Source of the DNA: a virus | Taxonomy: Duplodnaviria > Heunggongvirae > Uroviricota > Caudoviricetes | Length of the DNA stretch: 7,056 nucleotides | Virus record (IMG/VR): IMGVR_UViG_2609459844_000004 | Coordinates: 1-7,056 of that record | Direction: 5' to 3' (one strand) | Shown here: piece after piece, positions 1 to 3,000 of the stretch | How the letters are laid out: each line of letters begins with the position of its first letter | Position numbering within the stretch: the stretch's first letter is position 1 | Program-made: the position numbers

Positions 1-3000
1 GAAATCCGTCTTCATATTGTTTGCGATGTCCCTGATGAACTTATTGATTTCACGTTTGAATGGAAAGGACTGAAGAAATTATGCGTGGCAGTCTCCTTTC
101 GGTCAATAATAGCAGAACAAAAGAAAGAGCCAGAAATGACGGTCAGATATTATATCAGTTCTGCTGATTTAACCGCAGAAAAGTTCGCCACAGCAATCCG
201 AAACCACTGGCACGTGGAGAATAAGCTGCACTGGCGTCTGGACGTGGTAATGAATGAAGACGACTGCAAAATAAGAAGAGGAAACGCCGCAGAATTATTT
301 TCAGGGATACGGCACATCGCTATTAATATTTTGACGAATGATAAGGTATTCAAGGCAGGGTTAAGACGTAAGATGCGAAAAGTGTGGGGTAGTGATCAAT
401 TCTGGGCGGAGTTCGTGCAGCCTGGTAGACCCTGCAAGCCTTGTGTGGCGCGGGGTATGGTGATTTAGTGTGATTCTGGGCGGATTTGTGAGAAATGACC
501 AAAAACGCTTTTTTTTGCGCTTTTTTCTGGGCGCTTTTGATCTGGTTCTGCTACAAACTTAACGGGTTTTAAATGCTTTTAAAAAAGTGTTTTATCCTTA
601 CCCGTTTTCCTCAATTTGTTCTCATCTGTTGTGTTCGGTTTTGTTGTGGTTATTGCTGATTAGCTAACAGCACACGCCCCGCCAAAACGAGGCGCTTATG
701 CTGATTTCTTGTTTACAGGCTTAGTTTCTTGCTCCGGTGTGACGGGAACGCGATCACCTGGTGTTCCAGCACAGAAAATGGCTTTGGCGCGGCGCAAAAT
801 CTCTTTGTCATTTTCCTCATCGCCAGCTAATGCCATGCAAACAGCGTCTTTAAGCGATTGCCTGATGTTCAGGCTTTGAATGGCCTTCCTTTGCTCCTCA
901 AGTTCGCTATCGGCTTGCTTAGTTTGCCTGGTGGGTTGCTGTAGGCGTTCCAAGATTCCTTTAATGCCCATATCGCATATTGCACTTATCAGTTGTTCCT
1001 TATCTTCTGTGGACGCTCTTTTCAATAACTCGTTAACTAGCTCGTTTGTAATATCGGGAGAAGGCTGCGCTGTTTGATTTGATAGAGAACCTCCTTTGGC
1101 GGTGGGTTCCTCACCATAAGCGAGCCAATTTAAGCTCACTTGTTCTTTATCTGAGATAAGACAAGCTATTTTAAAAGAAGGCTCTGTTCCTTTATGAATG
1201 TAGTTGTTTAAGGTTGAAGGGGGGATTCCCCAATCACTCGCAGCAGTTCTGACACTACGGTTACCTATCAGCTTTACTAAACGCTCTCTGAAACTTTCTT
1301 TTCCCTGGTCGACAAAAGAAAAAGCATCATCATTTCTAGTCATTTTTTCTTTCCTCTATAACTGATTGATTTTAATTACAAAAACCATATAAAGACCAAA
1401 ATCAAAAAGAAAATACAAAGAAAGAGCTATTTTTGCTTTACATGGGCTACATATGGATCAATACTTGTATCCGAAGGGATAACACGGCGGTGTTATCCGC
1501 ACGGATAACTTTTAAGGGTAACCTAATGATGGTTAGAAATGAAGTAATGAACAAAGACTGGCACCGCGAGTACATCGTTGCCGCTGTGCACACCAAAGGT
1601 TTTACATTGCGTGAACTTTCTGAACGCGCTGGTCTAAAAAAAGACTCTTTAAAAAATGCACTGTATCGCTCATGCCCTAAATATGAACGCATCATAGCCG
1701 ATGCTATTGGTGTGGAACCTGCGGAGATCTGGCCAAGCCGGTATGCCAGTAAGGCGGCGTAATGTTTTATTCAGCCAATGAGCTGGCCGGTCTTCCTGGT
1801 TTGCCCGGTACAGTTCAGGGGGTGCGCTGGACGCTCAATCGGATCACAGAGACGCACCCAGAATGGAAGCGCAAGCGCGAAGGCACCAAAGCATTCGAGT
1901 ATCACATCGACTGCCTGCCCGCTGAAGCGCAGAAAGTTTTACGTAAGCGCCTGACTCATCAGGTCCTGGAAGATGCACAACTGCCCGCCGTAGTTGAGCA
2001 GAAAGCAGTTAAAAACGTCGCCGTTCGCGATGAACTGGAGGTGATGGTCAAATGCCCGGAGCTGGCATTACGCGAAGTCCAGTCACTGACCGACAAGCAA
2101 AAGGCCATCGCTGATGCGCGGATAAGCGATTTTTTTGACGCTGTTACGTCCCCTTTAAAGACCATTAACAGCGTGATTAAAAAAATCCAGACTGTGCGTG
2201 CCACGCTGGTAAATACCCTGCTGACGTTCAAAAGTGATTCATTCTCCACAGTCGATAATGTTGTGTCACTGGCCAGCGAACCCGGAAAGTTTATCGGCGG
2301 GCTGGCAGAGGTGCTGGAAATCCACACGTCAGATGTCGGGCACGCGGTGCCGGTTCTGGCGCGTACTGATTCCGCCACCACGACCGGGCTGACCGGAGAA
2401 GACAGCGTCGCCAGTTCTGCGACCGTGATGACCTGCTGGAATGAGGTGATGGCAGATATGGATGAGCTGGTCGCGCTGCCGGTCGCACTGGTCAGCGGTG
2501 ATAAAACGCCGTCTGTGGCACTTCCGCCGGATGCGTCCGTGGAAGACGTGCAGGACGTGAAAGCGGCTTATGCGGTTCTGGCGGCCTCAGAGCTGGCCAG
2601 TGTGGCGACGGCAGTACTGTCCGATGAAGCCCAGTCAGAACAGCTTATACCGGCGGATATCGGGCGACTGGTCGGGGATGTGCGCACCCGCTTACAGGCA
2701 GCCATTACGCTGTTCCGTGAACGCTATGAAGGCGAACGCGAACGGATAACTGAAACCGCATCACCACTGGGGCTGATGTACCCGGAAATCATTCAGAGCA
2801 TGAAGAACGTGGCGGCATCCGTGCAGGATGTCGGCCTGCTGGTTCTGTCACGCCGCCCACCGCTGACGCAGAAACAGGTGCAGGCGGACAGCTGTCTGCT
2901 GTTGCTGGCGTGGCAGTGGTACGGCGATTACAGCCGTGCGGCAGAGCTGCAACGTCTGAACCCGCAGCTGCGTGACCCGAACAACATAACCGCCGGGATG

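Follow-up and report, generated by a model that had tools for sequence, protein, structure and literature searches.

Domain architecture and mosaicism of the immunity region in a deleted Mu-like prophage whose Cro/CI-type repressor accompanies Ner and a transposase N-terminus of the Mu type

The stretch of DNA considered here (hereafter the window: 7,056 nucleotides, positions 1 to 7,056 of the IMG/VR record IMGVR_UViG_2609459844_000004) contains the left end and several tail genes of a Mu-like prophage, and this report deals with the immunity and early-control region of that element, which consists of a leftward repressor gene (c), a rightward gene for a Ner-type regulator (ner) and a chimeric open reading frame (ORF) that begins as a Mu-type transposase (A) and ends as a gpN-like protein. 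A first-pass annotation of the window had drawn attention to the coexistence, within 696-1762, of a Mu-type Ner and transposase N-terminus with a repressor of another kind, and had taken this to suggest replacement of the repressor by module exchange. The comparisons described below, with intact prophages, sequenced phages and Mu itself, bear on what was exchanged and on how common the resulting combination is.

The left end and its early genes

The features of the left end are given here with their coordinates, strand and basis.

1-382: 3' part of an insertion sequence (IS) transposase gene (PF01609), interrupted at 383 by insertion of the Mu-like element.
383-560, plus strand: left end of the Mu-like element (attL), with the terminal TG at 383 and three direct repeats inside.
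696-1343, minus strand: c, repressor gene of 215 aa (Pfam, PHROG, AlphaFold2 model, homologue in E2348/69).
768-1052, minus strand: predicted all-alpha C-terminal domain of c, residues 98-192 (AlphaFold2 model).
Residues 81-94 of c, minus strand: linker predicted to be disordered (AlphaFold2 model).
1116-1292, minus strand: predicted helix-turn-helix (HTH) domain of c, residues 18-76 (AlphaFold2 model).
1437-1465, plus strand: candidate early promoter Pe, TTTACA, 17-nt spacer, AATACT (consensus match only).
1468-1522: candidate Ner operator, two palindromes plus GGTAAC at 1517-1522.
1526-1762, plus strand: ner, 78 aa, Mu Ner-type regulator (PF13693, phrog_769, RefSeq relatives).
1762-2124, plus strand: truncated transposase A', residues 1-121 (PF02316, identity to E2348/69, fold matches).
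2125-3024, plus strand: C-terminal two-thirds of a gpN-like DNA-circularisation protein (E2348/69 WP_000539587, phrog_184).

The gene order after attL is thus c (696-1343, minus strand), an intergenic region of 182 bp, ner (1526-1762) and the 420-aa chimeric ORF (1762-3024), with ner directly upstream of A and its stop overlapping the A start at 1760-1764. The closest intact relative is a 36-kb prophage that lies in eutC of E. coli O127:H6 strain E2348/69 (NC_011601.1, about 2715950-2751650) and encodes a repressor 98% identical to c, an identical Ner, a full 680-aa transposase, B, and head and tail genes. In the alignment of the two elements homology stops exactly at 383, where the IS transposase gene stands in the window and eutC in E2348/69. 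Within attL the direct repeat TTCTGGGCG(G/C) occurs three times, at 400-409, 474-483 and 525-534, with spacings of 74 and 51 bp and a chance expectation of 0.04; by analogy with Mu these repeats look like transposase end-binding sites, candidate counterparts of L1-L3. An ORF listed at 85-468 is an artefact that spans the IS/prophage junction.

The Mu-like character that had been ascribed to Ner and to the transposase N-terminus is borne out for both. Ner matches PF13693 (HTH_35; E 2.4e-25, 88.8 bits against a cut-off of 25) as well as phrog_769, is 100% identical to its E2348/69 counterpart, and likely starts at 1526, which gives the 78 aa annotated in RefSeq relatives, and not at the TTG at 1433. 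Pe is the sole sigma-70-like site found in 380-1800 and is conserved among relatives. Residues 7-144 of the chimeric ORF match PF02316 (HTH_Tnp_Mu_1) at 40.4 bits (cut-off 23.3), and over residues 1-121 its product agrees completely (100%) with the 680-aa E2348/69 transposase. Residues 1-80 are modelled, with a predicted local distance difference test score (pLDDT) of 88, as a winged helix that finds its two closest PDB folds in 1TNS, MuA I-alpha (E 7e-4, 38% identity), and 1QPM, the DNA-binding domain of the Mu repressor; the N-terminus of A' is a winged helix of the MuA I-alpha type.

The two domains of the repressor

The DNA-binding domain of c is of a different kind. Residues 20-80 match PF07022 (Phage_CI_repr; 28.1 bits, cut-off 22) over positions 4-63 of the 65 in the profile, a weaker match to HTH_3 is also present, and the protein as a whole falls into phrog_3037, "transcriptional repressor" (E 1e-57), while Pfam finds no match in c to PF02316, the Mu winged helix. 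An AlphaFold2 model built from 30 homologues folds residues 18-76 into five helices (pLDDT 85-90), and the best PDB folds for this domain are P22 c2 (template-modelling score, TM, 0.80; root-mean-square deviation 1.6 Å), 434 Cro (TM about 0.8, like P22 c2), SinR and ImmR; a sequence search of the PDB using c returned nothing meaningful. On the model and the profile matches, the DNA-binding domain of c is a Cro/C1-type five-helix HTH and not a winged helix, in agreement with the first-pass annotation. The comparison with Mu made there is also sound, as both c and A of Mu match PF02316 (Mu c at 182.7 bits). In Mu the two proteins are homologous at their N-termini and have common binding sites (PMC3820752, citing Harshey 1985 and Mizuuchi 1986); the HTH of c is not the PF02316 winged helix, so that repressor and transposase cannot here share sites through homologous domains.

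In other respects the region resembles that of Mu and D108, with left-end genes in the same order and divergent arrangement, an HTH_35 Ner, a transposase with an I-alpha winged helix, and a repressor of about 200 aa that has no protease domain, a helical C-terminal part and a tail of the form K-K-x-small residue. The N-terminal segment of the transposase is type-specific here, as it is between Mu and D108. Unlike that of Mu, the transposase here lacks Pfam matches to DDE_2 and I-gamma, and its match to rve is weak.

The pairing is no oddity of this element, a point on which the earlier reading needs amending. The same arrangement exists in the intact E2348/69 prophage and in several sequenced phages. 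In D3112, a Casadabanvirus of Pseudomonas, c carries HTH_3 and Peptidase_S24, Ner carries HTH_35 and A matches PF02316 at E 5e-44; the Shewanella phage vB_SspM_MuM16-2 (MuM16-2) has an HTH_3 plus S24 repressor beside an HTH_35 Ner and a PF02316 transposase; and vB_YpM_5, a Yersinia phage classified as Muvirus, has a PF07022/HTH_3 repressor 35% identical to c over residues 2-140, with Ner and a PF02316 transposase coming next. The repressors of the E2348/69 prophage and vB_YpM_5 are annotated merely as "helix-turn-helix domain-containing protein" or "hypothetical protein". In an index of public assemblies the homologues P0019 and P0076 are found in 3341 and 532 blocks, respectively; a search with the Mu c family itself gave only 24 clusters. 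By domain content, then, a Cro/CI-type c with a Mu-type Ner and transposase is a common combination and is not peculiar to a defective element.

D3112 and MuM16-2 share with the window an XRE/CI-type HTH repressor, an HTH_35 Ner and a PF02316 transposase, and they differ from it in the C-terminal part of the repressor, where they carry an S24 autocleavage domain of the kind seen in LexA and lambda CI (PF00717, E 6e-23 in D3112 c and 3e-23 in MuM16-2 c). In c the C-terminus is modelled as all-alpha, and a search for PF00717 gave no match at E values up to 0.1, which makes induction through RecA-stimulated self-cleavage unlikely. The protein ends in a disordered basic tail terminating in KPVNKKSA, and Foldseek found no partner structure for the C-terminal domain.

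The two halves of c have had separate histories. When identity to c was scored separately for the N-terminal 82 and the C-terminal 120 residues of 104 homologues, the two values were found to be uncoupled, as the following homologues illustrate.

P0019: N-terminal part 52%, C-terminal part 87% identical to c.
P0057: N-terminal part 72%, C-terminal part 45%.
P0079 and P0085: N-terminal part 72-76% (P0079, 76%), C-terminal part without similarity to c.
P0064 and P0065: N-terminal part without similarity (HTH_3), C-terminal part 61-67%.
P0067: N-terminal part without similarity (PF02316, the Mu winged helix), C-terminal part 61%.

An exhaustive search of 1.84 billion representative proteins with a profile of the c-type C-terminal domain retrieved just 50 clusters, of which 30 have HTH_3 or Phage_CI_repr at the N-terminus and four (P0067, P0109, P0110 and P0123) have PF02316. 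A single type of C-terminal domain is therefore found joined to PF02316, HTH_3 and PF07022 N-termini, and, as judged from these profiles, the XRE/CI HTH is its common partner.

These data bear directly on the proposal that an entire XRE-family repressor gene, foreign to Mu, displaced a gene of the Mu c type and left the transposase N-terminal domain without a matching repressor. The Cro/C1-type fold of the DNA-binding domain, the blank result when the whole of c was compared with Mu c by BLASTP, and the existence of a sister prophage (L010) that retains the Mu arrangement, its c and transposase N-termini being alike, would all fit such an event. Against it stand the homology that runs from attL to about 970, inside c, which makes the 3' half of the gene common to different immunity types, the attachment of one C-terminal domain to three kinds of N-terminus, and the presence of the arrangement in intact prophages and sequenced phages. 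The XRE/CI types are moreover in the majority (30 against 4 of the Mu type), so that either state may be the ancestral one. We regard replacement of the whole gene as improbable. What stands of the earlier proposal is that an exchange took place; it affected only the N-terminal, DNA-binding half of c, with a breakpoint near 970, and the C-terminal domain is shared.

Whether the shared domain is kin to the corresponding part of Mu c is a more delicate matter. BLASTP of c against Mu c found no significant match, and profile methods were applied for that reason. Residues 90-185 of Mu c match phrog_3037, the family of c, at E 1e-4 and at the same profile positions as the C-terminal half of c; hhalign pairs 94 colinear columns of the c C-terminal alignment with the Mu c family (Mu c 101-194) at E 4.2e-4; and a second C-terminal type that occurs on the same type of HTH as in the window (P0079, P0085 and P0103; family A9) bridges to the Mu c family with E 1.3e-5 and a probability of 80%. 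Both families also end in a lysine-rich tail with small residues (KKSA, KQKAG and KKIAG in the c family; KKAV, KKAS and SKAG in the Mu c family). ClpXP degrades the Mu repressor by way of its C-terminus, which bears a conditional determinant for recognition by ClpX (PMC10584840), and the degron of MuA is RRKKAI (PMC8138137). The C-terminal ~115 residues of c, basic tail included, are probably a distant relative of the C-terminal region of Mu c, and the domain is probably the counterpart of the part of Mu c that serves in oligomerisation and in sensing ClpXP; by extension, c itself may oligomerise and be subject to control by ClpXP.

The competing view is that the C-terminal domain has nothing to do with Mu c. 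It would be an oligomerisation module of this lineage's own, joined to several DNA-binding domains of which the Mu winged helix is one, and the likeness in helical pattern, EIL motif and basic tail would be convergent or due to chance. The statistics are marginal enough to lend this some weight, since the hhalign probability is 34% and a comparison with the single Mu c sequence yields E 0.011; Mu c is absent from the 50 clusters retrieved from the 1.84 billion proteins, and there is no PDB structure for either domain. The three independent comparisons are nevertheless colinear over the same regions, and position in the protein, length and the K-K-x-A/G/V tail agree as well, so that an unrelated origin seems to us possible and rather doubtful.

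Exchangeable cassettes and candidate binding sites

Mosaicism in the region was mapped by blastn of window positions 383-2124 against seven related loci, with the breakpoints on the c side drawn from L019, L017, L018, L010 and L020. Four segments are distinguished.

383 to ~970, segment 1: conserved left arm, attL and the 3' half of c; identity 74-94%.
~970-1453, segment 2: c cassette, comprising the DNA-binding half of c, the c-proximal intergenic DNA and the -35 hexamer of Pe; unalignable in the P0044 locus.
1454 to ~1857, segment 3: ner cassette, comprising the candidate Ner operator, ner and transposase codons 1-32; 98% identity in the P0044 locus, unalignable in the P0065, P0076 and P0067 loci.
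From ~1857 or 1930, segment 4: transposase, conserved again at 92-96%.

The locus L019 has 98% identity from 1454 on, and L017 and L018 realign with the window only from 1856-1858. Among complete E. coli genomes, 35 match 1000-1900, 15 of them throughout and the other 20 only from 1452/1454 on, at ~99%. The encoded proteins divide at the same places: in four loci Ner and transposase residues 1-35 are both 100% identical to those of the window and the c N-termini are 98, 93, 46 and 48% identical, and three loci have 80-98% identity over transposase residues 36-121 against only 31-43% over residues 1-35 and 36-42% in Ner. An independent pair, L017 and L018, has unalignable c DNA-binding domains and c-proximal DNA and is 89% identical from about 60 bp upstream of ner on.

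The second boundary falls within the winged helix of the transposase. Residues 1-32 are modelled as strand 1, helix 1 and helix 2 (18-31); the conserved part holds the wing, with strands at 36-38 and 45-48, and helix 3. Helix 18-31 is taken, by analogy with the winged helix of MuA, to be the recognition helix, and the breakpoints then imply that this helix is inherited with ner and not with c, which is another difference from Mu. Among transposase N-terminal fragments from several genera, the wing RKREGTKAFEYHIDCLP is nearly invariant behind a variable stretch of some 30 residues, and in alignment A11 the Vibrio fragments P0163 and P0168 are identical after about residue 31 and different before it. 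From the Vibrio pair, a cassette boundary behind the putative recognition helix seems to be general.

Ten loci sampled by means of repressor homologues all have a Mu-type ner adjoining (10/10), with c as the leftmost gene, divergent from ner-A-B; in nine the Mu-like left end is complete, with B following ner and a PF02316 transposase, and L020, the tenth, is a remnant from which all of these but ner have been deleted. A role for c as a regulator belonging to a defence system or to the host was ruled out by its position, as it is always the leftmost prophage gene and adjoins ner, and PADLOC gave no match for c, Ner or the chimeric protein.

On the right-hand side of the intergenic region, a 14-bp palindrome, TATCC-N4-GGATA, is present at 1468-1481 and again at 1494-1507, making GGATAAC half-sites (inverted repeat I1); there are no other copies in the window and none arose in 200 shuffles. 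The sequence at this position varies with the type of Ner, L013 having TGATAACTAACTTTAGTTATCA and L017 and L018 having related GATAA(A/T)/ATTATC palindromes (CCGATAATCGAATTTGATTATCGG in L018), and because of this covariation the palindromes are assigned to Ner as candidate binding sites. On the left-hand side, loci whose c has a DNA-binding domain of the same type share a conserved block of ~55 bp around Pe (1408-1466), and the operators of c presumably lie in 1344-1453.

Taken together, these observations make it quite probable, in our judgment, that the interval represents what an enterobacterial lineage of Mu-like transposable prophages normally has at its left end for immunity and early control, surviving here in a remnant most of whose genome has gone through internal deletions, with a two-domain repressor (an exchangeable HTH and a C-terminal domain common to the lineage) and two adjacent cassettes that have been exchanged. 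In such a region the Cro/C1-type HTH (PF07022) of c would read operators in the c-proximal half of the intergenic DNA, overlapping the -35 hexamer of Pe, while its all-alpha C-terminal domain and basic tail would be retained throughout the lineage whichever DNA-binding domain is attached, and Ner would bind the tandem TATCC-N4-GGATA palindromes immediately downstream of the -10 hexamer. Evolution of the region would proceed by swapping of one cassette made up of the c DNA-binding domain and its operators, and of a second made up of the Ner operator, ner and that part of the transposase winged helix that includes the presumed recognition helix. Under such two-cassette exchange a Cro/CI-type c beside a Mu-type Ner and transposase would be an ordinary combination rather than a rescue or an accident.

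Several points weigh against this interpretation or parts of it. Besides the blank BLASTP, the low hhalign probability and the failure of the exhaustive profile search to reach Mu c, as described above, the covariation that links the palindromes to Ner is seen in a handful of loci only; no convincing dyad, and no definable operator, emerged when sites for c were sought through repeats and through conservation among loci of the same type; and the candidate promoter of c is a weak consensus match.

The first-pass annotation had asked what the transposase winged helix still recognises. The same residues 1-32 stand alongside two different sets of c DNA-binding domain and operators, and the target of the winged helix cannot be tied to the operators of c. 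In Mu the enhancer lies between c and ner (PMC5977238, PMC3820752). Were an enhancer located likewise in this lineage, it would be confined to the 72 bp that are shared, 1454-1525. A word-indexed search for a repressor with the winged helix of this transposase brought up only transposase N-terminal fragments among the 21 candidates listed. A bolder proposal, which we put forward as a speculation and hold to be on the unlikely side, is that the lineage has given up the Mu rule by which repressor and transposase compete, by means of homologous N-terminal domains, for operator/enhancer sites. Transposase residues 1-32, ner and the Ner operator would then form one cassette that is freely combined with at least two unrelated sets of c DNA-binding domain and operators, the enhancer would be situated in the Ner-proximal GGATAAC array at 1454-1525, or else away from the c operators altogether, c would act on transposition through transcription only, and the Mu c-like C-terminal scaffold with its ClpX-type tail would be a chassis for winged-helix, HTH_3 or CI-type domains.

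State of the remnant and its possible immunity

While the E2348/69 prophage is complete, the element in the window is a deletion derivative, lacking the region from B through the head and most of the tail genes. Its transposase is cut at residue 121 and fused in frame to gpN at 2116-2125, where the junction alignment shows a deletion at 9-10 bp of microhomology, GCGCGG(A/T)TAA; beyond residue 121 the chimeric ORF is 82% identical to the gpN-like protein WP_000539587 of E2348/69 and matches phrog_184. The 680-aa relative has Pfam matches to rve and Mu-transpos_C. What is left in A' is the intact I-alpha-like winged helix and part of the next subdomain, without the end-binding domain and the DDE core, so that end binding and the catalysis of transposition are impossible for it. 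An exact protein look-up finds the chimeric ORF on 15 contigs from several assemblies and read sets, with the same c and ner genes adjoining in the six places shown, and the exact A'/gpN junction does not occur in contigs that represent one genome per species, which makes the deletion a strain-level event.

A second internal deletion, at 3008-3623, has removed the equivalents of gp45-gp47 and brought the first ~34 codons of a gp44-like baseplate gene up against a gp48/YmfQ gene that is truncated at its 5' end and misses about 28 initial profile positions; the stub at 3008-3145 has 45 codons, of which the middle matches the start of the gp44-like baseplate protein. Base composition contrasts strongly inside this one element, the guanine-plus-cytosine fraction being 0.39-0.45 in the immunity region and rising to 0.60 at 2250-3000, within the gpN-like segment. 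The tail-fibre ORF at 5230-7056 (608 aa) has a PF08400 N-terminal domain and a C-terminal part of ~480 residues that has no Pfam match, and this region is unlike E2348/69 and ~92% identical to other E. coli prophages.

The host sequence is that of an E. coli-type chromosome, and the chimeric ORF has an exact match in the assembly GCA_000703525.1. There its neighbours match the CN_hydrolase, Ivy, acyl-CoA dehydrogenase and SIS-domain families, which we take to be the yafV-ivy-fadE-gmhA neighbourhood of E. coli. Every one of the 5426 complete E. coli genomes has some match to the query L004 3100-9000 (tail genes plus flank), in most cases with 95-99% identity; the chromosomal part of the query presumably accounts for this, as the phage part matched few genomes. 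A megablast of 500-3200 against a phage collection gave zero matches, and an Rfam scan of the whole window found no family.

Divergence from E2348/69 is uneven along the immunity region. The ner and A' sequences (1526-2124) do not differ at any of their 599 nucleotides, the 182-bp intergenic region has 6 differences (97% identity) that leave the Pe hexamers and the palindromes unchanged, and c has 9 differing codons, 5 of them synonymous and 4 non-synonymous; the protein is identical at 211 of 215 residues, and the substitutions (R13Q, I81T, E84G and S85G) leave the HTH helices untouched. This pattern suggests recent recombination at the cassette boundary.

These figures also bear on what the repressor may still do. 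If expressed, c would keep Pe shut in the remnant and could likewise repress a phage entering with the same operators. The first-pass annotation had raised the possibility of superinfection immunity, and from the sequence it is plausible that c in this dead prophage confers immunity to homoimmune Mu-like phages, because the c ORF, the promoter and the operators appear intact. A contrary view would have c as an inert relic, either silent or inactive, from which the host draws no immunity. The heavy deletion of the element, the weak promoter-like site before c, and the four substitutions, with R13Q and two linker changes among them, are in keeping with this, as is a ratio of 5 synonymous to 4 non-synonymous codons, which, with so few differing codons to go by, carries no sign of purifying selection. 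It is countered by the full-length c ORF with its unaltered HTH helices, by the 97% identity of the intergenic region to that of an intact prophage, and by the recurrence of contigs with the identical chimeric ORF and the same c and ner neighbours. On balance we give an inert c only limited credence.

The pairing as such matters little, since a Cro/CI-type repressor beside a Mu-type Ner and transposase has long been on record in D3112. What is added here is a domain-level view of the repressor architecture and of an immunity region made up of two cassettes. The family of repressors defined by the C-terminal domain (~50 clusters, with three kinds of DNA-binding domain, and probably related to the ClpXP-controlled part of Mu c) provides natural chimeras for studies of oligomerisation and inactivation, and the natural recombinants, in which the putative recognition helix stays with ner while the c domain and operators change, make it possible to ask if recognition of the enhancer and binding of the repressor have to coincide. 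The host strain, for its part, may be protected against homoimmune Mu-like phages by the intact repressor gene of its dead prophage.

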